A stretch of 12,903 nucleotides of DNA from an archaeon (GTDB taxonomy: Archaea > Iainarchaeota > Iainarchaeia > Iainarchaeales > 1-14-0-10-31-34). The translations under genes and the position numbers were made by a program. The stretch lies in the NCBI GenBank assembly GCA_043819075.1, contig JBDRFE010000053.1, positions 1 to 12,903 on the forward strand, given 5' to 3'. Under the pieces are notes generated by a model that had not been told where the DNA came from, ran no database searches, and was given only the letters and a program-made list of their open reading frames with translations. Of this stretch, positions 1 to 12,406 are shown piece by piece. Position 1 is the first letter of the stretch. Each line of letters starts with the position of its first letter.

Positions 1-20
1 TTACCTCATCATTGCCGATA
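1..20 (+). repeat. 21-bp module-boundary repeat, copy 1 (truncated by window edge)
   Basis: TTACCTCATCATTGCCGATA, 18/20 to consensus positions 2-21 of TTAACCTCATCATTGCCTATA. Confidence 0.85.
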
Positions 21-108
21 AAAACTCATTTACCGCATTTCCAACTTGCACAATCATGAAACTATTTAAAAGTGTTATTGGCATTCAATAATTTAAGGCG
101 CTGTGTTA

Positions 109-2757
109 ATGCAAGAGTTTGCTAAAATGAAAGTTGAAGAGGTTTTGGAACAGCTTGAAAGCTGTTCAACCGGCCTGACAGAAGAAAAAGCCGAAAACCG
201 ATTAGAGAAATACGGCTTCAACGAATTAAAAGAAAAGAAGAAAGTCACGCCTGCAAAAATTTTGTTAAGGCAGTTTGGCAATTTTATGGTCTGGGTTCTG
301 TTTGCGGCGGCTTCTACATCTTATCTTATTGGAGAGATTCTGAGCTTTTGGGCCACATTATTCATCATAATCTTTATAATCGCCGCCGGGTTTATTCAGG
401 AGTTCAAGGCAGAAAAAGCAATGGATTCCTTGAAAAAAATAGTGAAATCAGCAACCAAAGTTATTCGCAACAATAAAGTAAAGAAAATTCTTACAAGAGA
501 GCTCGTTCCAGGCGATGTACTGTTGCTGGAAACAGGCGACAAGGTTCCGGCAGACGCAAAAATACTGGAAGTTATTGGCCTAAAAGCAGATGAGTCGACC
601 TTAACCGGTGAAAGTCAGGCTGTGGAAAAAGCGATAGAAGACATAGTTTTTGCAGGCACGAGTATTGTTCGCGGAAAATGCAAAGCAGTTGTTTTTGCAA
701 CAGGAATGCAGACAAAAATAGGGGAAATTGCTGAAATGATTCAGGAGGAAGAAGAAAAAACGCCTCTTCAGATAAAAATAACGCGATTGGCGAAAACAAT
801 CGCAATGATTGCTTTAGTGGTCTGCGCTCTTATATTTTTATTGGGCATTCTAAGAGGGGCACCAGTTGCATCAATGCTTGTTGTGGCTTTGGCTCTTGCT
901 GTTGCAGCAGTCCCGGAAGGCCTGCCGTTAACGCTGACAGTTACTCTTTCAGTAGGGATGCACAAAATGGCCAAATATAATGCAGTAATAAGACGAATGC
1001 TTGCAGTTGAAACTCTTGGAAGCACCACAGTAATATGCACGGACAAAACAGGCACGCTGACTAAAAACGAGATGACAGTGGAAAAAATCTTTGTTAATGA
1101 CAGTGTGGTTGATGTTACTGGCGTTGGGTATGAACCAAAGGGCAAGTTCTCTATTAATGGACAAAAAATTGATACAAAAAGCAACAGAACAATCTCATTG
1201 ATGTTGAGGGCAGGCACTTTATGCAACAATGCGTTCCTTGAGAAAAAAGGAGAGAACTGGGAAACGATTGGTGATCCAACAGAAGCAGCCTTGGTTGTTT
1301 TGGCTGCAAAAGCAGGGGAATGGAAGGATGACTTGGAAGAAAAAAACCAGCGGCTTGAAGAAATCGTTTTTACCAGCGAAAGAAAAATGATGAGCTGCGT
1401 CAATCAAACCGGAAAAGAAAAAACGGTTTTTGCCAAAGGCGCACCTGAAACAATTCTGGAAAAATGTGGTTTCATTCAAAAGAACGGAAAAACGGAAAAG
1501 ATTTCAAAAGAAGAGATAGAGAAAATCCTGAATGCAAATAAACAGTTTGCAGGCAATGCTCTTAGAGTATTGGGTTTTGCCTATAAAGAAATTTCACTGC
1601 CTCTCACTCCGGAAAACATTGAAAAAGATCTTGTTTTCCTCGGTTTGGCCGCGATGATTGACCCTCCAAGAGAAGAAGTGAAGCATGCAATTGAAACATG
1701 CAAAACCGCGGGAATAAAAACAGTGATGATTACAGGCGATAACGAGCACACCGCAAAAGCAATTGCAAAAGAGATTGGGCTTCTAAATGACGACAACCAG
1801 CGAATAATTACTGGAAAAGAATTAGATGAAATGAATGACGAAGAATTTGAAAATATTGTTGAACAAACAGTGGTTTATGCAAGAACACACCCAGAACATA
1901 AAATGAGAATCGTTAAAGTCCTGCAGAAAAAGGGGCATATTGTTGCAATGACTGGAGATGGCATAAACGATGCGCCGGCAGTAAAAAAGGCTGACATCGG
2001 CATAGCAATGGGCATAAAAGGAACTGATGTCACAAAAGAGTCAGCGGACATGATTCTTATAGATGACAACTTTGCAACAATAGTGGATGCAGTCAGGGGC
2101 GGCAGAACAATCTACGAAAATATAAGAAAATTCACAACTTACCTGCTTTCGAGAAATTTCACTGAAGTGATTTTAATATTCATAGGCATAGCGTTCTTTA
2201 ATTTTAATTTCCTGCCACTGCTCGCTCTGCAAATCTTATTCATAAACTCTTTTGACGAAGTAATGCCTTCTCTGGCTCTCGGAGCCGAACCAGCGAGAAA
2301 AGGAATAATGCAAAAACCGCCAAGAAACCCAAAAGAAAGATTTCTGACAAAAAAGAACACAACAATAATATTAAGCATGGCTGTATTCATGGCTCTGGCA
2401 GCCCTTGCAGTATTCATCCATGCAGATCCGGCAACAAACATTGAAAGGGCAAGAACAATGGTCTTTGCAACAATAGTTAGCATGGTGGTTTTTATCCCTT
2501 CCGGCTTCAGGTCACTTGAGGAACCAATACACAAAATCGGGCTTTTCACAAACAAATGGATGCTACCTACAACAGCTATTGTAGCCATAACAACATTAAT
2601 CGCGATGTATGTCCCTTTTTTCCAAAAAATATTTGAGTTCACAACACTGAATTTGTTTGACTGGCTAATCTGCATATCAGCAGCGTTCAGTGCGTTCATC
2701 TTTCTTGAAGCGCTAAAATTTTTTACAAACAGGAAAAACACAGACTATAATTCTTGA
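109..2757 (+). CDS. Cation-transporting P-type ATPase, type IIA (SERCA/PacL-like)
   Basis: TGES, PEGLP (M4), DKTGTLT phosphorylation site, KGAPE, DPPR, MITGD and TGDGINDAP motifs plus hydrophobic segments. ATG 109 preferred over GTG 103 because AAGGCG lies 8 nt upstream. Confidence 0.95.
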   Translation: MQEFAKMKVEEVLEQLESCSTGLTEEKAENRLEKYGFNELKEKKKVTPAKILLRQFGNFMVWVLFAAASTSYLIGEILSFWATLFIIIFIIAAGFIQEFKAEKAMDSLKKIVKSATKVIRNNKVKKILTRELVPGDVLLLETGDKVPADAKILEVIGLKADESTLTGESQAVEKAIEDIVFAGTSIVRGKCKAVVFATGMQTKIGEIAEMIQEEEEKTPLQIKITRLAKTIAMIALVVCALIFLLGILRGAPVASMLVVALALAVAAVPEGLPLTLTVTLSVGMHKMAKYNAVIRRMLAVETLGSTTVICTDKTGTLTKNEMTVEKIFVNDSVVDVTGVGYEPKGKFSINGQKIDTKSNRTISLMLRAGTLCNNAFLEKKGENWETIGDPTEAALVVLAAKAGEWKDDLEEKNQRLEEIVFTSERKMMSCVNQTGKEKTVFAKGAPETILEKCGFIQKNGKTEKISKEEIEKILNANKQFAGNALRVLGFAYKEISLPLTPENIEKDLVFLGLAAMIDPPREEVKHAIETCKTAGIKTVMITGDNEHTAKAIAKEIGLLNDDNQRIITGKELDEMNDEEFENIVEQTVVYARTHPEHKMRIVKVLQKKGHIVAMTGDGINDAPAVKKADIGIAMGIKGTDVTKESADMILIDDNFATIVDAVRGGRTIYENIRKFTTYLLSRNFTEVILIFIGIAFFNFNFLPLLALQILFINSFDEVMPSLALGAEPARKGIMQKPPRNPKERFLTKKNTTIILSMAVFMALAALAVFIHADPATNIERARTMVFATIVSMVVFIPSGFRSLEEPIHKIGLFTNKWMLPTTAIVAITTLIAMYVPFFQKIFEFTTLNLFDWLICISAAFSAFIFLEALKFFTNRKNTDYNS

Positions 2758-2873
2758 TCCGAAGATTTTCAAGGGAATGGGAAAAACAGCAGTATAACAG
2801 GACTTTAATAAATCTTTTTTTCCTATTTGAGTTGAACTGGTTAAAAAAACAAGGAATTCGGTTATGAACAAGA

Positions 2874-3305
2874 TTATTCTTTGAAGTAATTCTTGTCTTC
2901 TGCAATCAAACCATCTAAAAGCTCAAAGCAGTCCAACTCACCAACAATTTTTCCTTTTTCACAAACAGGAAGGTCTTGCAGGCCAGATACAATGGCTGCA
3001 CGAAAAGCATCATCTAAATCATCATCTAATGAAACAGATATCACAACTTTCATTATATCCCCTGCTTTTAAATCCTTTTTTTTATTAAATATTTTTAGTA
3101 TTTTGGGTTTCATTTTATTAAATATCTGGCCAAAAATTTCCTTGATTGTTATTACTCCGACTAAATTCATTTTTTTGTCAATCACAAAAACTGTTCTGGT
3201 GGATTTATTTTCTGCCATTACTTCAATGACTTTTTCAATGCTATCATCTTCAAAAACTTTATCTACAAAACCAGAATTTTTTTCATAAACATCTCTGACC
3301 TTCAC
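2874..3305 (-). CDS. Stand-alone CBS-pair (Bateman domain) protein
   Basis: MKVRDV start; two CBS units (VFVID..LVGVIT..EI; KAGDIM...LPV...GKIVG.L); GTG start preceded by AGGTGG RBS. Confidence 0.9.
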   Translation of the reverse strand: MKVRDVYEKNSGFVDKVFEDDSIEKVIEVMAENKSTRTVFVIDKKMNLVGVITIKEIFGQIFNKMKPKILKIFNKKKDLKAGDIMKVVISVSLDDDLDDAFRAAIVSGLQDLPVCEKGKIVGELDCFELLDGLIAEDKNYFKE

Positions 3306-3402
3306 TCAACCACCTAAACCTAAAAGACAGTAAAATCTTTTAAATGTTTTCTTTGTTGTTCACTTGTGAAACCTTGAAATAGCATTCAAAACACAATCAG
3401 AA

Positions 3403-3423
3403 TTAATTTATCATTACCTATAA
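3403..3423 (+). repeat. Degenerate tandem copy of the 21-bp boundary repeat
   Basis: TTAATTTATCATTACCTATAA; the 3' part ATCATTACCTATA matches ATCATTGCCTATA 12/13, the 5' part is diverged. Confidence 0.5.
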
Positions 3424-3426
3424 CAT

Positions 3427-3456
3427 TCAATAGTTTTAACTTCATCATCGCCTATT
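3427..3456 (+). repeat. 21-bp module-boundary repeat, copy 2 (with 5' extension TCAATAGTT)
   Basis: Core 3436-3456 TTAACTTCATCATCGCCTATT is 18/21 to consensus; the extension is identical to that of copy 4. Confidence 0.85.
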
Positions 3457-3466
3457 TTGTATGATT

Positions 3467-3483
3467 AAAAAGTTTTAAATATA
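3467..3483 (+). promoter_or_regulatory. Putative archaeal BRE/TATA promoter of the lipoprotein gene
   Basis: AAAAAG-TTTTAAATATA ending about 22 nt before ATG 3505. Confidence 0.5.
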
Positions 3484-3504
3484 AGTTTGATTCTTAAGAT
3501 ACAC

Positions 3505-4614
3505 ATGAAACAATTGTGTTTTGCAGTTGTGGTTTTGTTAATTTTATTTTTTGGATGTACTGAACCATCTGAATCTGATAATACAAGTAATGATGAGTTG
3601 GCTGATGAATCTCTAATTAATGGAAATCAGCAACCACAAGAAAAAGAAATTGATTTGCCTGTGAAACTCACATACACAATTCCAATGTACAAAGAGGATA
3701 AACAAAAATTTGACAGATATATAGTGTATTATCTTGAAAAACAAATAAAATGTTCTGGGAGAGATGCAATTGTTGGTGTGCTGAATTCTTATGAAGAAGG
3801 TGCGCCACCAGAGCATGAGTACTGGGCCAAGTTTACTCTTTATTTGGATAATGGCGAGTTCGGTGTTTCAGAAGGCACTGGAAAATCAGGTTTAACATTT
3901 GACGATGCAAAATCACGGAGACCAGAAGAATATGATTTAATTTCACAACTTAATTTAATATTTGCTTCTAACGGAAAAAATTTTAGTTCCTCTGAAGTAT
4001 GGGAATCAGATATTCCGACAATTTTAAAGGACATTTATTATCCGACAATGGCTGTTGGAGATTTATTGGGCGACCTTTCAATCATAAAAAAAGAAGTTTC
4101 AACAAAACATGCTGTGCCTTGCACTGAATTCAGCGTAAACTTAAAAGGTGGAATGGGTTTTGGTGGTGAAATAGTTTACTGCGTTACTGCTTTAGACAAC
4201 AAGCTTGGTTTGCCTTATGTTGTTTCAATGACAACACCTAAAATGGATATGGACAATGACTTTAAGCTGAAAAAAATTGAGAAAGAATCTTCAGGAGTAT
4301 CGTTTTATCCTCAATGCATGGAACCTTTTTATTGTGCAAAACCAGAGATGATGAATGAACAGGAAAGGAACGAGTGCCAGTCACAGGGAAGATTAGTTTA
4401 TGAGGAAAGAGATGACAAGAAATGCATTACTGCTTTTAAGTGTCTTACCAAAATTGAGTCAGTTAAAATTCAAATAAAGAAAGGGCAGCCAGCTAACTGT
4501 CTTGATCCTAGTGATGAATTGTTACAGGAAGCAATGAAGTGTGTTGAAGGAGAATACGAGCCAAAAAGCATGGAACTTGACGATATGGGTTGTCTTATTT
4601 CAGTGGAATGCTAA
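3505..4614 (+). CDS. Cys-rich exported/lipid-anchored hypothetical protein
   Basis: MKQLCFAVVVLLILFFGC signal with lipobox-like GC, acidic linker, many Cys in the C-terminal third; ATG 3505 preferred over TTG 3487. Confidence 0.8.
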   Translation: MKQLCFAVVVLLILFFGCTEPSESDNTSNDELADESLINGNQQPQEKEIDLPVKLTYTIPMYKEDKQKFDRYIVYYLEKQIKCSGRDAIVGVLNSYEEGAPPEHEYWAKFTLYLDNGEFGVSEGTGKSGLTFDDAKSRRPEEYDLISQLNLIFASNGKNFSSSEVWESDIPTILKDIYYPTMAVGDLLGDLSIIKKEVSTKHAVPCTEFSVNLKGGMGFGGEIVYCVTALDNKLGLPYVVSMTTPKMDMDNDFKLKKIEKESSGVSFYPQCMEPFYCAKPEMMNEQERNECQSQGRLVYEERDDKKCITAFKCLTKIESVKIQIKKGQPANCLDPSDELLQEAMKCVEGEYEPKSMELDDMGCLISVEC

Positions 4615-4671
4615 TTCTTTTCAGAAATATCAAAATTGAATATATGATTATATATTAGCTAATTCGCGCTG

Positions 4672-4692
4672 TTAATCTCATCATTGCCTATA
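4672..4692 (+). repeat. 21-bp module-boundary repeat, copy 3
   Basis: TTAATCTCATCATTGCCTATA, 20/21 to consensus. Confidence 0.9.
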
Positions 4693-4847
4693 GAGATGTA
4701 TAGAAGTTATCCTTAATATTGTTGCTGGCTCATATTTTTTTGGCACATATGAATTACAGGATTATAAAATTAATTCATCCGCAAAATTCAGTTCAAGGAA
4801 ATCCAGCAACCGCTTTTGTATACAAAATTCCTTTCACAAAAAAAAAT

Positions 4848-5387
4848 ATGACTATTTATGACACAGTGGATTTTTTTAGAAAAGAAATATTTTTAAAGAC
4901 AAAAAAAACAAATAAACAAAAGACTGCAGGGAAGGTATTGTTGAGAAAGATCATAAACCTGCATAACAACAACGGCATAAAAAACATTCCCCAGATAACA
5001 TCAATGATTAACCAGATAAAAACAGGAAAAGACATTTTATCTGATTTAGATTTGCCTAATGTAAAATTAGTAAAAACTTGCAACAAGAAATGGGTTTTGT
5101 TTGACGGGCATCACTCCATGCTTGCATACATGGCTCTAGGCAGAAAATATTTGAGTGAAATACCTCATTTAATAATCCAAAACAAAAACGGTTATGTGAA
5201 AGACAGTGAGATTCTTGTATTTTTTGGAGTTCATTCAAAAAAACTTAGAGCTTTGAGTTGGAGAGATTATGTAATAAACTGGCAGCAGCTAAAAGAAAAA
5301 CAACTTTGTAGACGCGTTCAAGAAAATATGGGTGAGCTTTTTGATTCCTTTAAAAATAAAGCTAAAGATAATCTTGCCATAAGATAA
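4848..5387 (+). CDS. ParB/Sulfiredoxin-like N-terminal domain protein (atypical)
   Basis: LPNVKLV...WVLFDGHHSMLAYMALG...IP resembles the ParB/Srx DGHHR motif; ATG 4848 lies about 26 nt after TTTTGTATA; the ORF-track start is TTG 4719. Confidence 0.65.
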   Translation: MTIYDTVDFFRKEIFLKTKKTNKQKTAGKVLLRKIINLHNNNGIKNIPQITSMINQIKTGKDILSDLDLPNVKLVKTCNKKWVLFDGHHSMLAYMALGRKYLSEIPHLIIQNKNGYVKDSEILVFFGVHSKKLRALSWRDYVINWQQLKEKQLCRRVQENMGELFDSFKNKAKDNLAIR

Positions 5388-6400
5388 GAAATTGTTGATT
5401 CTGCTCCCTGATTGATATTAACTGAAATTTCCTCCAAACCATCATGGCAGCCTCCATTTGATTCATTATAAACTGCCTGATTTAAAACGTTTTTCCCCAG
5501 AAACCATTGAAATGCAGTAATTGCTTTCCCTAAATAGCTGTCTTTTTTTGTTATATTATAAGCCAAAACAAGTGTCTGGACCATTGAAGCAGTGTCCACT
5601 GGCTGCTGGGCAAAACTTGATTTTTGGTTGTTTTTTTTATACCATCCGTTGCTTCCAACAGGAGAAAACACTCCGTTTTTGAAAGTAATAGAAACCAAGA
5701 AATCAAGTGATGATTCTGCAATCTCTAAATATTTTTTGTCTTTAGTGGCAAGATAAGAATAAAAAAGTGCTTCAGAAAGTTTGCTGTTGGAATAAGTAAG
5801 ATAACTCTCAAACCAATGCCATTCATTAGAAAAATTATCGTTATACAATGAAATCAGATGATCAGCGGATTCACGGATTCTGGAAATATTTTCAGGCAAA
5901 GGCCTTGCTTTGTTGTAAAAATACAATCCTAAGATTATGAATGCAACCGCTCTAGGGGACTTAATGTTTTTTATTGCATTTAGCGCCCTGCAAAATATTT
6001 GATCAGCTTTATTTTTTAATTCCTGAGAAATGCCTTTAGTGAAAATCAAAAAACCAAGAGACCAGATTGCCCTTCCATGAGCATCTTCAGACCATTGTTC
6101 TAAATTTACTTTTTTATTATAATCAACAAAGTTACATAATTTTCCATCAGGCTGCTGAACGTGTTCAATAAAATCAATATATGTTTTAAGCAGATTTATT
6201 TTATTATTATTTTCTGAAATAGAATAATGCATACAGCAGACTATAATTGCCCTTGCATTGTCATCCAAAGAATATCCGGAATCTGTATCAGGATTTATAT
6301 TCTTTGCAAACTGGATAACTCCAAAATCATCTGTAAGTTTCACTAGATGGCTTAGCTTAATTTCAGGAAATGTTTTTTTATATTTTAGGTAGTCCAGCAT
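5318..6400 (-). CDS. Six-hairpin glycosidase-like (alpha/alpha) domain, normally the C-terminal half of fused GT4 proteins
   Basis: HL..LTDDFGVIQF, GYSLDDNARA, SEDAHGRAIWSLG, W.WFE..LTYSN, F.QQP.D, F.WFLG.N, GGC.DGL and N.NQGAEST motifs; probably out of frame with the upstream GT4 by one base. Confidence 0.85.
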   Translation of the reverse strand: MLDYLKYKKTFPEIKLSHLVKLTDDFGVIQFAKNINPDTDSGYSLDDNARAIIVCCMHYSISENNNKINLLKTYIDFIEHVQQPDGKLCNFVDYNKKVNLEQWSEDAHGRAIWSLGFLIFTKGISQELKNKADQIFCRALNAIKNIKSPRAVAFIILGLYFYNKARPLPENISRIRESADHLISLYNDNFSNEWHWFESYLTYSNSKLSEALFYSYLATKDKKYLEIAESSLDFLVSITFKNGVFSPVGSNGWYKKNNQKSSFAQQPVDTASMVQTLVLAYNITKKDSYLGKAITAFQWFLGKNVLNQAVYNESNGGCHDGLEEISVNINQGAESTISYLMARLSLALFLKESKSSPIFS

Positions 6401-7562
6401 ATTTGTTAAACACCTTTATATTAGATAATGCAATATTAGGCCAAGTCATATGCCTTGTGTAAGAGTATGCGTTCCTTTCCATTTTCTCTTTCAATTTTGG
6501 GTCTGACAACAGTTTCATGATTGCATTTTCAAATGAATGGGGATTATTAAATTCAACTAAAATCCCTCTTTTTGGATTGACTGCTTCTATTGCATGCACA
6601 AAAGGTGTGGAGATAACTGCCCTGCCACAGCCCATTGCATAAGCCAAAGTTCCGCTTACTGCCTGGTATGGATCATTATTTGAACAAATATAAATATCAG
6701 CTGCCTTTAGGTATTGTACTATTTCACTTAACTTGACATATTTGTTGTAAAATTTTACGTTTTTCTGAAGGCCTAATTCTTTTACTTTATTTTTAAGAAA
6801 ATTCCTGTATTTCTCTCCTTCATTTTGCCTTACAATTGGATGTGTTTCCCCTACAATTAAATACAAGAGATTAGAGAATTTTTTTGTGAGTTTAGGCAGT
6901 GCATCAATAACATATTCACAGCCTTTGCCTGCATTAAGCATTCCAAAAGTTAAAAGAATGATGTTGTTTTTATAGCCAATCTTTTTCTTTTCTTTTGCAT
7001 TAGAGCCAAATGAAACAGTTGGTATGCCGTGAGGAATAACCTCAATAGGCGTTTTTATTCCATAATCGTTTCTGAGAATTTCAACAGCGTTTTTTGTCAT
7101 TACAACAAGGCAGGATGATTTTTTCGCAAGGCATTGGACAACTTTTTTTAGTTTGCTGTCAGGCTCTGGTAAAATAGAATGAAATGTAATTACCACTGGC
7201 TTGTTTATTGTATCAAGAAAAGCATTTAGATAATCTTTGCACTGCCCTCCAAAAATGCCAAATTCGTGTTGGATATTAACCAGCTTGATTGAATCCATTT
7301 TATTGATTTTTTTTGCTGTGTCAATGTATTCAGAAATATTATCATCGCTAATATTCAACAGAACATTCTTGGGATAATTATAAGTTGCAGTAGAGTTATC
7401 ATTCATTGCCAGTATCCTTGATTTTATTATAGGAGAGAATTTTTTATCCATTGCATTTGTTAAGTCCCTGGTAAATGTGGCTATACCACATTCTCTTGGA
7501 GGGAATGTTCCCATATATAATATTCCCAAAGATTTCTTTTTGCTGTGCTTTTGTTTTTCCAT
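6378..7562 (-). CDS. Glycosyltransferase family 4 (GT-B)
   Basis: TFPPRECGIATFT, IQHEFGIFGG, IPHGIP, TFG.L..GKG.E, G.THP, QAVSGTLAYAMGCG.AVISTP motifs. Confidence 0.92.
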   Translation of the reverse strand: MEKQKHSKKKSLGILYMGTFPPRECGIATFTRDLTNAMDKKFSPIIKSRILAMNDNSTATYNYPKNVLLNISDDNISEYIDTAKKINKMDSIKLVNIQHEFGIFGGQCKDYLNAFLDTINKPVVITFHSILPEPDSKLKKVVQCLAKKSSCLVVMTKNAVEILRNDYGIKTPIEVIPHGIPTVSFGSNAKEKKKIGYKNNIILLTFGMLNAGKGCEYVIDALPKLTKKFSNLLYLIVGETHPIVRQNEGEKYRNFLKNKVKELGLQKNVKFYNKYVKLSEIVQYLKAADIYICSNNDPYQAVSGTLAYAMGCGRAVISTPFVHAIEAVNPKRGILVEFNNPHSFENAIMKLLSDPKLKEKMERNAYSYTRHMTWPNIALSNIKVFNKYAGLPKI

Positions 7563-7642
7563 TATATAAGATTAAAGCAAAAAATAATTAAAGGGATTAA
7601 ATTCAACTTTATGTTTCTTCTGATTTGAATGTATCACAAAAA

Positions 7643-8674
7643 CTATGGCTTGTTTTTGCTAGCCAACAATTCATTTACAAGTTCTTTTAGGTCAAGAGAA
7701 ACTGCTCCAATCTTTTTATCTGCTGCGCCATAATAAATGTAAAGCCGGTTATCAAACACTGCTGTGCCAGTGGGAAATACAACATTATCTACATTGCCTT
7801 TTTTCTCCCATTCTTCTTCAGGAGAAAAAAGCGGTTCCCGTAAATGGCTTATTACTTTTGTAGGATTTTTTTTATCCAGCAAAGCTGCTCCTGCCCTGTA
7901 AATTCTTCCCTGGTTCATATCATCTACTGCATGATAAATCAAAAGCCAGCCTTTATCTGTTTCAATTGGCGGGCAGCCACCGCCGATGTTCCTGTTTTCA
8001 TACCAATGCCTTGATTCAAGGATTGTAAAATCATATAATTTTGCAAAATGCTTTTTCCAGAAGTCCAGTGTAAGGTCCTTAAAATCATTAAAATAAATTA
8101 CCTGTATGTCTGGAAGAATTCTGTGAACCAAAGCAAACTTTCCATTAATTTTTTTCGGAAACAAGAATGCATCTTTGTCCCATAACAATGCATCTTCGCC
8201 AACTACATCCATAAAATGTGATTCAAAAAGAAAGTACCTGTCTTTCAGCCTCAAACTGCAGGCACGCAATATGTCTGCTGTTGCATGATATGTTATTTGA
8301 GGCGAGATTAACCCTTTTTTTTCAAATTTTTTAAGATCAGTGCTTGTTGCATAAGCTATGTGCACGTTTTTGCCGTCGTAAGCAACATAAGTGAGATAAT
8401 ATTTTTTATCAAGAAAAACAATTCTTGGATCTTCAAGATTATACTCAAAATCTTGTTCTTGAAACAAAAATGGTTTCTTTGATCTTTCTATAACTTTTAA
8501 AGGCCCGTCAAGCTTGCAGTAACCTATTGTTGATCTGTTCTCTTTATTCCAGGCACGGTAAAACATATGCACATGTTTTCCTTTCCTAATGCACGCTGGA
8601 TTAAATACTCCTTTATTTTCAAACTCTAATTCAGTTGGTTCTAAAATAATTCCTTCTCGTTTTATTTGCACCAT
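7643..8674 (-). CDS. Glycoside hydrolase family 130 (mannoside phosphorylase/hydrolase-like beta-propeller)
   Basis: GVFNPA, LEDPRI, YYLTYVAYDG, KDAFLFP.KING, HRI, IGGGCPPIET..GWLLIYH, G.V.NVVFPTG, IYYGAAD motifs. Confidence 0.9.
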   Translation of the reverse strand: MVQIKREGIILEPTELEFENKGVFNPACIRKGKHVHMFYRAWNKENRSTIGYCKLDGPLKVIERSKKPFLFQEQDFEYNLEDPRIVFLDKKYYLTYVAYDGKNVHIAYATSTDLKKFEKKGLISPQITYHATADILRACSLRLKDRYFLFESHFMDVVGEDALLWDKDAFLFPKKINGKFALVHRILPDIQVIYFNDFKDLTLDFWKKHFAKLYDFTILESRHWYENRNIGGGCPPIETDKGWLLIYHAVDDMNQGRIYRAGAALLDKKNPTKVISHLREPLFSPEEEWEKKGNVDNVVFPTGTAVFDNRLYIYYGAADKKIGAVSLDLKELVNELLASKNKP

Positions 8675-8733
8675 GGCATATATTAATCATTACTGATTTA
8701 TATGCTTAATTAATTGTGGGGCGTCTGCTATAA

Positions 8734-8763
8734 TCAATAGTTTTAACCTCATCATTGTCTATA
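8734..8763 (+). repeat. 21-bp module-boundary repeat, copy 4 (with 5' extension TCAATAGTT)
   Basis: Core 8743-8763 TTAACCTCATCATTGTCTATA, 20/21 to consensus. Confidence 0.9.
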
Positions 8764-8834
8764 AAACCAATAAGTGTTTATTGTTAAAAAGAGTTTTATT
8801 TGCTTTTTTTTGCAAAATCAGCTAGCTGAGTTAT

Positions 8835-8981
8835 CTATTCTTTTATTACTGTAATTCCCATTTTTTTGTGGCAAAGTTCGTGTTCTTCATTGTCTTTTTC
8901 GTCATAATCTTTATGCTTTTTATGCCATTCGTCATGCTCTTTTTTGGTAATAACAATATTTTTCTTAGGTTTTTTGTCCAT
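8835..8981 (-). CDS. 48-aa His-rich microprotein (not in ORF track)
   Basis: Hand translation: MDKKPKKNIVITKKEHDEWHKKHKDYDEKDNEEHELCHKKMGITVIKE-TAG; starts 17 nt after the ATPase stop, with purine-rich GAGAG upstream. Confidence 0.7.
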   Translation of the reverse strand: MDKKPKKNIVITKKEHDEWHKKHKDYDEKDNEEHELCHKKMGITVIKE

Positions 8982-8998
8982 ATTATCTCTCTATAAAA

Positions 8999-10294
8999 TC
9001 ACTCAGTGAAAGCCGAAGCAGTCATTCCTCCGTCCCAGGAAAAACGAGGGCGGATTTTAATCATCCACAAATTCTCTGTATTGTCATCCAAAATTAATGC
9101 AAAGCCTTTAGAGCGCGGCATTTCCTGATAATATTTGTCAAAATTCTGGTGCATATAAGAAGGCCTTAAAGCAGAAACAGCTTCAATGTCTGGCTGGGAA
9201 GTCATTCTATGGGAAATAAATAAATCGCACTGGGAAATACAGTCAGGATGAAGCTTGTCAGGCCTCTGGGTTGCAAGAACTAAACTAAGCCCGGGTTGCC
9301 TGCCAACTCTCACCCACTCCAACAAAACTTTTAATGCAATGCTTTCCCTGTCTTTTGGCATAAACATATGAGCTTCATCTATTAACATCCAGACAATAGG
9401 CATATCACTTTCTTTTTTTTCGCCTTGGATTAATTTAATTTCTTCTTCTTTTCTGTAAAGCATTCTTTCTTCAAACAATTTTTTTCCAATCAAAGCAACA
9501 ATTATTTCTCTAGTGCCCTCCATTCCAATGGATTGCCTGTAAGCAGAAACATCAATTATAGTGATTTTTCCCGGCTCTGCAAGGTCTCTTATTTTTGTTC
9601 CTTCTTTTTCAAACAAGCCCCAGCTTTCAGCAACCTTTAATCTTCCGATTATTGCATCTCTAGCATTTTTGTCTGAATTCTTGTCTGATTCAACTGCAGA
9701 AATAATTTTCTTGATGTCATATAATGTTCCAAGTTTTTCTTTAACTGAATCAATTGTCCGAGAAAGCAATACCCCTTCAGGCTCTTTCCAGGTTAAATTA
9801 AACAAGGCAAGCCATTCCTCTGATTCAAGCTCTGAAACCTTTAAAGTAAATGCTCCGTCCACAGGAATCTTTTTTTCTCTATAAAAAGAAAGCTTTCCTT
9901 TTGGAACCAAAACCCTTGCATCAGTTTTATCCGGAGCCAAATCCCAGTTAAATAATTCAGCTTTTTCTTCTTTGTTCGGCACCTTTAAAGTCCAGAAGAT
10001 TCCAACAGTATCTATTGCAATAACTGAAATCCTTTTTCTGATGTGAACAGGCTGTCTTGCAAATTCTTCCAATAAAACTGCGATGTCATATGACTTTCCA
10101 CCGCCACGTTTTCCGCAGATTAAAACAACGTGTGGTTTTGCAATATCAAGCAAAATTTTTCTTCCAAGAACAGGCCTTTCGCCAGAGCTCATTACAATTT
10201 TTCCAATGTAGGCAGTGCCTTTTTCCCTGTATTTTTCTAAGTCATTTAAGCTTCTTCCAAGCACAGTGTGTTTTTCAGAAAAATCTATTGCCAT
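8999..10294 (-). CDS. HerA/FtsK-superfamily ATPase (DUF87 type)
   Basis: Walker A GKRGGGKS, Walker B WMLIDEAH, arginine-finger region GRQPG, LVLATQRP; likely start MAIDFS at 10294, which avoids overlap with the divergent gene. Confidence 0.9.
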   Translation of the reverse strand: MAIDFSEKHTVLGRSLNDLEKYREKGTAYIGKIVMSSGERPVLGRKILLDIAKPHVVLICGKRGGGKSYDIAVLLEEFARQPVHIRKRISVIAIDTVGIFWTLKVPNKEEKAELFNWDLAPDKTDARVLVPKGKLSFYREKKIPVDGAFTLKVSELESEEWLALFNLTWKEPEGVLLSRTIDSVKEKLGTLYDIKKIISAVESDKNSDKNARDAIIGRLKVAESWGLFEKEGTKIRDLAEPGKITIIDVSAYRQSIGMEGTREIIVALIGKKLFEERMLYRKEEEIKLIQGEKKESDMPIVWMLIDEAHMFMPKDRESIALKVLLEWVRVGRQPGLSLVLATQRPDKLHPDCISQCDLFISHRMTSQPDIEAVSALRPSYMHQNFDKYYQEMPRSKGFALILDDNTENLWMIKIRPRFSWDGGMTASAFTE

Positions 10295-10393: not shown

Positions 10394-10966
10394 ATGGAAT
10401 ACATTGTTTTAGACACAGAAACCTGCCCGATAAAATTAGAGGGTTACCTGGAGTTAAGCGAAACTGAAAGAAAAAAACTGATTAATCCAATTGACTCAAA
10501 ATTAGTTGCAATAGGATTAAGGCATAATTCAAGAAACATTATATTGCAGGATGAAAACGAAAAAAAAATGTTAGAGGAATTCTGGAAAGAACTGGCTGAA
10601 ATAAAAAAAAAGAAAAAAGAAACAAAAATAGTCGGCTTTAATGTAAAAGACTTTGATTTGCCTGTACTGGTTACAAGAAGCTTCATTAATAATGTGGTAA
10701 TCGAGCCGTTTGTGTTAAAGGATGTAATTGATTTAAGAGAAAAAGTCTCTGCTTTCAGGTACGGCCAGACAAGAGGAAAACTAAAAGAATTTGGAGAATT
10801 CATGGGAATTGAACTGCATGAAATGGATGGCTCTCAAGTAGCAGAAGAATGCATTAAAGGAAACTTTGAAAAAATAAAAGAATACTTAAACAAGGATCTG
10901 GAAATAACTGAAAAAATGCTTAAAAGAATTATTGAAACAAGAATAATTGAAATAGAAAAATGGTAA
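10394..10966 (+). CDS. Stand-alone DEDD 3'-5' exonuclease (RNase H-like fold, YprB/PolB-exo-like)
   Basis: ExoI LDTET, ExoII GFNVKDFD, ExoIII YLNKD; likely start MEYIVLD at 10394. Confidence 0.88.
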   Translation: MEYIVLDTETCPIKLEGYLELSETERKKLINPIDSKLVAIGLRHNSRNIILQDENEKKMLEEFWKELAEIKKKKKETKIVGFNVKDFDLPVLVTRSFINNVVIEPFVLKDVIDLREKVSAFRYGQTRGKLKEFGEFMGIELHEMDGSQVAEECIKGNFEKIKEYLNKDLEITEKMLKRIIETRIIEIEKW

Positions 10967-11347
10967 CCAACTGCCACTGGCGTTGGTGTCAGCGCAGGAC
11001 ATTCGCTTTCGCTCAGTCCAGCTACATTGTCTAATAATTTAAAAGTAGTTGAAGGCGCTTTGCTTTTTGGCAAAGCGCTCCAATGGATTCTGCTAGTTTT
11101 GTTACAGCAACAAAATCATTGATTTTGTTCTGCACTTAAACCTTTTTGGTTTAAGTCGCACCTTTTGGAAAAGGTTTAGGCAAAGGATTTTTTAATTTTA
11201 TGGCAAAAATTTTTTCCTTTTTTTCTTGGTATTGGAAATCAAGGAATTAAGCGTATTTGCGCCAAGCTGAAAACCATAGGGGGTCAAAAGCGGTTTTACA
11301 GCCTGGCACAAATGGTGGGAGTAAGCAAAACTTTTGAGAAAAGTTTT
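10966..11347 (-). ncRNA. Candidate structured RNA or palindromic-element cluster
   Basis: At least eight inverted repeats in the intergenic region; several A/C mismatches on + become G-U pairs on -; GC-GAAA-GC tetraloop on -. No known family recognised. Confidence 0.45.
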
Positions 11348-11828: not shown

Positions 11829-11868
11829 GTCATATCATGATAGTATCATGACATATAAAAGCTTTTCG
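11815..11868 (-). promoter_or_regulatory. BRE/TATA promoter with phased palindromic operator array
   Basis: Minus strand CGAAAAG-C-TTTTATAT about 25 nt before ATG 11828; TCATGA/TCATGT at 11815, 11825, 11835 and 11846. Confidence 0.65.
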
Positions 11869-11921
11869 TCGTCGGATATAAAACTAGCATATATAAAGAA
11901 AAGCAATAAATCAAACCAAAA
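11863..11921 (+). repeat. 59-bp direct repeat, copy 1
   Basis: TTTTCGTCGTCGGATATAAAACTAGCATATATAAAGAAAAGCAATAAATCAAACCAAAA; 57/59 identical to 12348-12406. Confidence 0.95.
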
Positions 11922-12276: not shown

Positions 12277-12347
12277 AAACTGCTTTACTTTCCGGAAAAA
12301 CCCTCATATATAGAATTAATCACTAAAGAAATATAACATAAATATAT

Positions 12348-12406
12348 TTTTCGTTGTCGGATATAAAACTAGCATATATAAAAAAAAGCAATAAATCAAA
12401 CCAAAA
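12348..12406 (+). repeat. 59-bp direct repeat, copy 2
   Basis: Two substitutions relative to 11863-11921. Confidence 0.95.

Follow-up and report, generated by a model that had tools for sequence, protein, structure and literature searches.

The window examined here is contig JBDRFE010000053.1 of the archaeal genome assembly GCA_043819075.1, a stretch of 12,903 nucleotides in which modules of accessory genes are set apart by a 21-bp repeat. Drawing on a sample of 196 genomes of the archaeal order Iainarchaeales (with the window's own genome as G000), we find that this repeat very probably serves as attachment-site core for a family of integrative elements whose target is a guide-RNA gene, entered at its 5′ end. 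These elements persist mostly as integrase-less units, and the array that such units form in the window has probably grown on a half copy of that gene. Tandem site-specific accretion, rather than an integron or a dif system, is the best reading of these observations, and the system is order-wide, its site, target, and enzyme clade being identified by comparative evidence.

In the mechanism that we propose, a circular unit would recombine with the core, such that at its downstream end the RNA gene would be restored to full length, now under a promoter supplied by the unit, with the displaced 5′ piece of the gene staying upstream. Repeated insertion would stack such units in one orientation, and most of them would have lost the integrase while keeping their flanks, remaining mobile only with an enzyme supplied in cis or in trans.

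The repeat and the box C/D guide-RNA gene

Four copies of the repeat lie in the window, at 1-20 (18 of 20 positions), 3436-3456 (18/21), 4672-4692 (20/21), and 8743-8763 (20/21), just as the preliminary description of this DNA, made from its letters alone, had placed them. The three complete copies are recovered at no more than three mismatches, whereas 200 shuffles gave 0.00 such matches on average. The gene map bears out that all copies are intergenic and on one strand, and copies 2 and 4, said to have further sequence in common, share 29 nt at 90%. As had been suspected, the window begins at a contig end inside copy 1, for it is the whole of contig C53 of an archaeal genome of 1.24 Mb, assembled in 75 contigs and 90.6% complete. 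What is conserved is a minus-strand core of 14 bp together with an upstream flank of ~31 nt; in the window the cores lie at 3-16 (site 1, containing the C box ATGATGA and cut by the contig end), 3439-3452 (site 2), 4675-4688 (site 3), and 8746-8759 (site 4). A degenerate fifth copy is indeed present, though one base away from where it had been put: 3403-3423 matches at 8/21, whereas 3402-3422 (minus strand) matches at 15/21 by eye. It lies 34 bp downstream of site 2 and is an accessory sub-site, not a separate boundary. Two further close copies are found in G000, at C14:3-23 and C20:1827-1847; the next best matches already have 5 mismatches.

Read on the minus strand, the motif is GGC-R-ATGATGA-GGTTAA, and its core corresponds to the 5′ end of a gene for a box C/D guide RNA, namely the terminal stem, the C box, and the first guide bases. 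The C20 copy extends into a whole box C/D RNA with boxes C, D′, C′, and D in order, one 12-nt guide between C and D′, another between C′ and D, and a stem that closes it; this RNA is the sole match of a strict genome-wide C/D pattern in G000. Canonical boxes and 12-nt guides are seen in most of the 20 copies compared across the order, with deviant boxes in a few, and fibrillarin was found in five of five genomes. In four of four genomes with their own 23S rRNA, both guides pair with its A-loop region at sites 29 nt apart, through complementary runs of 9-12 nt; G000 has no assembled 23S, and the same-genus G005 was used in its place. The 16S rRNA was rejected as a target, its best runs being 7-9 nt. 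The target of the D′ guide presumably maps onto U2552 in Escherichia coli numbering.

Archaeal box C/D sRNAs have C, D′, C′, and D boxes and guides of 10-12 nt, with the target at the fifth nucleotide from the D or D′ box (PMC7994747, PMC4644070; these and most papers compared below are cited from excerpts). Because of this fifth-nucleotide rule (PMC7994747), the D′ guide is predicted to point at the A-loop's first nucleotide, which is a predicted methylation target in five species (PMC7994747, PMC4644070) and is U2552 of E. coli (PMC4644070). The sequence features taken together argue that a box C/D guide-RNA gene starts with the repeat, and that its RNA is predicted to guide to the 23S A-loop region. 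The excerpts of these two studies differ from our case in not mentioning the use of such an RNA as an integration target, and the RNA described here reaches the gathering score of no Rfam family, the best archaeal match being sR1 with 20 of 45 bits. An origin of the site in a tRNA gene was also considered and set aside: there is no tRNA on C53 or C20, and those on C14 are more than 4 kb from its site.

A divergent copy of the repeat at C35:11561 on the minus strand (L174:5562) belongs to a second full copy of the guide RNA in G000, with an altered core and an insert of ~70 nt between the D′ and C′ boxes; in G003, the core at L167:5151 is altered in a similar way. Such altered cores possibly represent escape from integration. 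One family of downstream flanks (L048:11480, L048:13868, L062:8194, L110:5519, and L160:1783) resembles a C/D RNA that has been rewritten: another C-like box lies at +33, and the sequence at the guide position is different; these could be cassette-borne guides or decayed copies.

Site arrays and an associated integrase clade

The exact 14-bp core occurs in 80 of the 196 genomes, with up to 11 per genome, and a reversed control gives 2 hits. In the listed matches (150 of 202), each of the 42 pairs of adjacent cores lying within 25 kb on the same contig is co-oriented (23 genomes, median spacing 2.0 kb), and 22 of the listed cores are no more than 400 nt away from the start of a contig. With this clustering and co-orientation, and with the tyrosine recombinase clade tied to the site that is described below, a motif scan of relatives came out as the preliminary description had anticipated. 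We fetched 33 loci with at least two sites, selected for having several matches. The full RNA gene is the last site in 17 of the 19 that hold one, the two exceptions ending within 154 nt of the fetched edge. Direct repeats of the target-gene end with an intact RNA gene at one end are thus seen in these 17 loci, but not inside the window, which holds no intact gene. Arrays at L062, L047, L048, L056, and L100 end in partial copies with kilobases beyond and constitute further secondary loci like that of the window. Outside the order, a stricter 17-mer was found in none of 19 same-class genomes. A viral carrier was rejected: 13 site-pattern matches in IMG/VR were judged to be due to chance, lying mostly in coding sequence and none being followed by guide sequence.

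A protein of ~430 aa with a match to PF00589 is encoded just inside a site in G033. Among 48 related integrase open reading frames (ORFs), 13 (from 11 genomes) have a core upstream, 12 of these at −78 to −85 nt. On a midpoint-rooted tree of 45 rows of at least 230 aa, 11 site-linked rows fall in a single 15-row branch (97/96), whose other members are two site-less rows and two for which the available upstream DNA is too short; no site accompanies any of the remaining 30 rows, of which 11 have a tRNA upstream. The clade integrase has a tyrosine-recombinase domain with conserved R186, K212, H293, R296, and Y329, which we take to be its catalytic residues. Complete elements, running from core through integrase and cargo to a full RNA, are present in G033 and G112. 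An integrase is present in 3 of 60 site-to-site units, and several of the integrase-less ones share their downstream flank with integrase-bearing units. The cargo of the scanned units includes type III restriction-modification systems, toxin-antitoxin-like genes, ATPases, transporters, and sugar enzymes, and no capsid or conjugation family was matched among the 59 cargo proteins scanned. A TATA-binding protein gene lies inside site-bounded units of G048 and G101 (L157:6820-7386, a Pfam match, and L172:6097-6663). At a contig end of G000 (C30:15035-15393), the N-terminal part of a related integrase directly follows a tRNA-Tyr gene and is probably of a tRNA-targeting type.

The rarity of integrases in the units, 57 of the 60 being without one, and the fact that G000 has a single full match to PF00589, a XerA-like recombinase, would also be expected if the host XerA acted at these sites as at dif-like modules, with the adjacent integrases as passengers. 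A dif site consists of two Xer arms around a 6-bp spacer and is served by the host Xer; no such two-arm site emerges from profiles of 52 and 129 sites, and dif or pdif modules were accordingly rejected. The arm earlier likened to the XerD arm turns out to be the reverse complement of the guide start, and the integrase that tracks the site is not of the Xer type. Given a separate clade at fixed spacing from the core in 11 genomes, and a core that is a guide-RNA 5′ end found at several loci per genome, we regard action by XerA as improbable.

Breakpoints and the anatomy of the site

The GH130 unit of the window (4671-8760) recurs in G003 between different neighbours, and the homology starts and stops in cores: it begins at the site 4 core, and the flank upstream of site 3 (4689-4719, minus strand), which has a TATA-like box at about −30 and is part of the unit, ends the unit in G003 as well. 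Similarly, the ABC-F unit that precedes the C20 RNA is 95% identical in G007, a member of another genus, and 83-87% identical in two other families, and in every case the alignment stops at the core. Of 97 alignment ends in total, 14 coincide with a site in both partners, whereas sites make up 0.4% of bases; the other ends mostly coincide with the ends of genes. The proposal that the copies are recombination sites left by serial site-specific insertion is upheld by these breaks in module homology at the motif, along with the clustering and co-orientation of the copies and the recombinase clade tied to them. Among the window's own units, gain or loss breaking at the motif could be traced for one of three: by alignment, the GH130 unit alone runs from site to site in a second genome, with weak support for the ATPase-CBS unit and none for the lipoprotein unit.

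Across 129 sites, pairs that are alike upstream stay alike to −1, and pairs that are alike downstream are so from +15, while the variation at core positions 4 and 12 goes with neither of the flanks. These limits of flank identity place strand exchange within core positions 1-14. The C box is the most invariant part of the 129-site profile, and its 7 bp are a candidate for the crossover overlap. Each unit takes along the flank upstream of its core, and a TATA-like word is present there at about −30 in 61% of 115 sites selected by the core alone (2-6% further upstream); such a box fits a unit that needs to restore a promoter because the target gene is entered at its 5′ end. A degenerate inverted copy lies 13 nt upstream of the core, and a direct copy at +33 to +35 accompanies 30 of 97 non-terminal sites; both may serve as accessory binding sites. 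The two flanks of a unit together form an attP-like inverted repeat (mean score of cognate flanks 14.75 versus 12.7 for mismatched pairs, with 0 of 5,000 permutations as high), a signal driven by a few units and clearest in the integrase-bearing ones.

The prevalence of the TATA-like word and the invariance of the C box could alternatively mean that the copies are regulatory or RNA-processing elements, namely a promoter and an L7Ae-bound C box leader before accessory genes, and the GH130 and CBS genes do begin 70-135 nt downstream of a site in the same direction. However, genes downstream of the sites face either way while the sites themselves are strictly co-oriented in clusters, the flanks swap partners exactly across the core, and the site is linked to one integrase clade; a regulatory role of this kind is thus very unlikely. 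The preliminary description had held that recombination sites would be refuted by relatives with an unchanged gene order and no breaks at the motif, or by copies at a set distance and orientation from promoters of core genes, as for a regulator site; what we observe does not refute them, the copies lying beside accessory genes in either orientation and at variable distance.

The gene-sized and co-oriented units, with their median of 2.0 kb, and the partial inverted repeat with a 13-nt spacer upstream of the core are also reminiscent of a true integron, or a cluster of attC sites lacking integron-integrases (CALIN), with short attC sites, and one relative's site does fold (z −2.9). Yet the three window sites, on both strands, fold no better than shuffles (z +1.4 to −1.4), the clade integrases are far below the IntI and XerA cut-offs (31-47 bits versus 265 for IntI), and the cargo is multi-gene and in both orientations. 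An integron in the strict sense is therefore extremely improbable, and the comparison with integrons made earlier is, there being no attC-like hairpin at the window sites, not supported as far as a true integron is concerned.

The herA-pdxT locus and the state of the window array

The window array abuts a HerA-like ATPase gene (8999-10294, minus strand; Pfam), a conserved flank gene outside the array, of which site 4 forms the upstream, attL-like end. In G004, herA, a site, a cassette, a site, and pdxT follow in order; in G002 and G005, herA and pdxT are separated by one variable gene with no core. The C14 copy in G000 lies at a contig end, 12 nt beyond the pdxT stop, and here and in G004 the pdxT-side site keeps the C box, the D′ guide, and the D′ box but not the rest of the RNA. 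The window array therefore probably extends across missing DNA as far as C14, and between herA and pdxT it would have grown on this half copy, not on the intact gene. At other loci, some units start with a complete copy of the RNA, offering a route by which the half copy may have arrived. Among contigs from sequencing runs, one spans window positions 108-9043 and another reaches 818 nt past the window start; since contigs of an independent run or of the source run thus cross the array, it is not an assembly artefact.

Several observations weigh against accretion on a guide-RNA target as set out above. The complementarity of either guide taken singly is modest, with 17 of 150 and 3 of 150 shuffles being equally good; the genomes and pairs in the array and breakpoint counts are not independent; and 14 of the 33 multi-site loci hold no full RNA. 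As for the enzyme, the integrases of G049 and G151 belong to the clade and have no core within 400 nt, the integrase profile at 1e-60 matches 20 of the 196 genomes with not all matches in the clade, and a profile search of G000, itself 90.6% complete, found no clade member. At the locus, the join of C53 to C14 is drawn only from the synteny of G004, the window has no intact RNA gene, and G003, like G002 and G005, has no core between herA and pdxT. Relatives of the ATPase and CBS genes mostly have no flanking core within 1.5 kb, the one relative of the lipoprotein-like ORF (65%, in G092) has no site within 1.5 kb, the GH130 module of G005 has only eroded ends, and the flank inverted repeat is not seen in the window's three units. 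Finally, contigs of 4 of the 15 listed runs yielded no clean excision joint against the window; the sole joint near a site, from 3358 to 4677, has a depth of 2, a 27-letter side, and 9 letters between, and is too weak to use.

Part of this evidence, namely the lack of an integrase in G000, of the flank inverted repeat in the window units, and of an excision joint, would fit a window array that is a fixed fossil, with units that inserted once and are now immobile and decaying. So would the substitutions in the cores of sites 2-4 and the eroded ends in G005 and in G002, the latter having an eroded homologue of site 2 upstream of its CBS gene. Nevertheless, the window cores remain 18-20 of 21 intact despite the divergence of their flanks, and in G003, at another locus, both ends of the GH130 unit are sharp. 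We give the fossil state somewhat less than an even chance; it concerns the activity of the array and not its origin, and is compatible with tandem accretion. Conversely, we likewise give somewhat less than an even chance to an active integron-like exchange, in which rare autonomous elements would supply the integrase in trans, integrase-less cassettes of gene size would move between genera and families, each junction would bring a promoter, and cassettes with whole or half RNA copies would seed platforms elsewhere in the genome, as at herA-pdxT.

Relationship to known integrative systems

In its outcome the system is integron-like, but judged by its parts it belongs with tandem integrative elements and cis-mobilizable elements (CIMEs) as excerpts of PMC3146451 and PMC5704250 portray them. 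The tandem ssrA islands of Dehalococcoides (PMC3146451) similarly comprise many islands at a conserved non-tRNA RNA gene with direct repeats of ~20 bp, some of them with an integration module by attL and 15 lacking one; they differ in using the 3′ end of the transfer-messenger RNA (tmRNA) gene and a serine recombinase, as against the C/D 5′ end, a tyrosine integrase, and a promoter-like flank for each unit here. CIMEs (PMC5704250) have likewise lost integration genes, kept attL and attR, and stacked at one site through site-specific accretion. They are, however, bacterial with conjugative or mobilisable helpers, whereas the cargo that we scanned showed no recognisable gene for transfer and the class of target differs. 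Close on the side of the enzyme are the archaeal tyrosine integrases that target tRNA genes (PMC8371274), with a conserved RNA gene as attB, above all the pTN3-like ones, which use the 5′ half of a tRNA gene, the rebuilt gene using the element's promoter; in contrast to that tRNA target, the one here is a C/D guide-RNA gene, and the integrase gene is intact beside attL and not split. Archaeal integrons and CALINs (PMC9668308) also comprise gene-sized mobile units that mostly lack a neighbouring integrase, but the present system has no IntI-type enzyme and no folding attC, and its platform site is a host RNA gene.

Integration targets given for archaea in excerpts of PMC8371274 and PMC6563490 are tRNA genes, protein-gene ends, and intergenic sites, and the words snoRNA and sRNA are absent from the former, a review of archaeal integrases. 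While the stacking architecture is already known from bacteria, we did not find a C/D guide-RNA target described in the literature, though one could be hidden in supplementary tables (e.g., the 15 intergenic targets in Table S2 of PMC6563490). To the ends of tRNA, tmRNA, and protein genes as integration targets, the system adds a new class, a gene that in archaea corresponds to that of a snoRNA, and it pairs a defined site with a defined enzyme clade. It also explains where a lineage of archaea with small genomes collects accessory genes for metabolism, ion transport, and defence, and why assemblies often break there. Further, the 14-bp core, conserved as it is throughout an order without cultured members, could serve genetic tools as a landing pad.

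Genes of the window and further observations

Unit 1 (3,436 bp from core to core) carries a P-type cation ATPase (109-2757, plus strand), with 87.5% DNA identity to a copy in G012, which belongs to a different family, and a CBS-domain protein (2874-3305, minus). Unit 2 (1,236 bp) holds the lipoprotein-like ORF (3505-4614, plus), which has no family match in Pfam and further profile scans. Unit 3 (4,071 bp) comprises a ParB/sulfiredoxin-like ORF (4719-5387, plus), a six-hairpin glycosidase-like ORF (5318-6400, minus), a GT4 glycosyltransferase (6378-7562, minus), and a GH130 mannoside phosphorylase-like gene (7643-8674, minus). The gene assignments made from the sequence alone are confirmed by Pfam for the P-type ATPase, CBS, GT4, and GH130 proteins; the six-hairpin call has weak GH88/GH127 matches, the ParB-like call comes from the ESM Atlas with no Pfam match, and the lipoprotein remains without a family.

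Between herA and site 4 lies a 48-aa ORF rich in His, Lys, and Asp (8835-8981, minus). Further along, an 88-nt direct repeat (84%) at 11834-11921 and 12319-12406 flanks a 100-aa ORF and is unrelated to the C-box motif. Contigs of sequencing runs X1 and X2 skip the 485 bp between its copies, and this small unit is therefore polymorphic. Loose contig ends occur in all four runs at the intergenic stretch around 10960-11210, which suggests a repeated element there.

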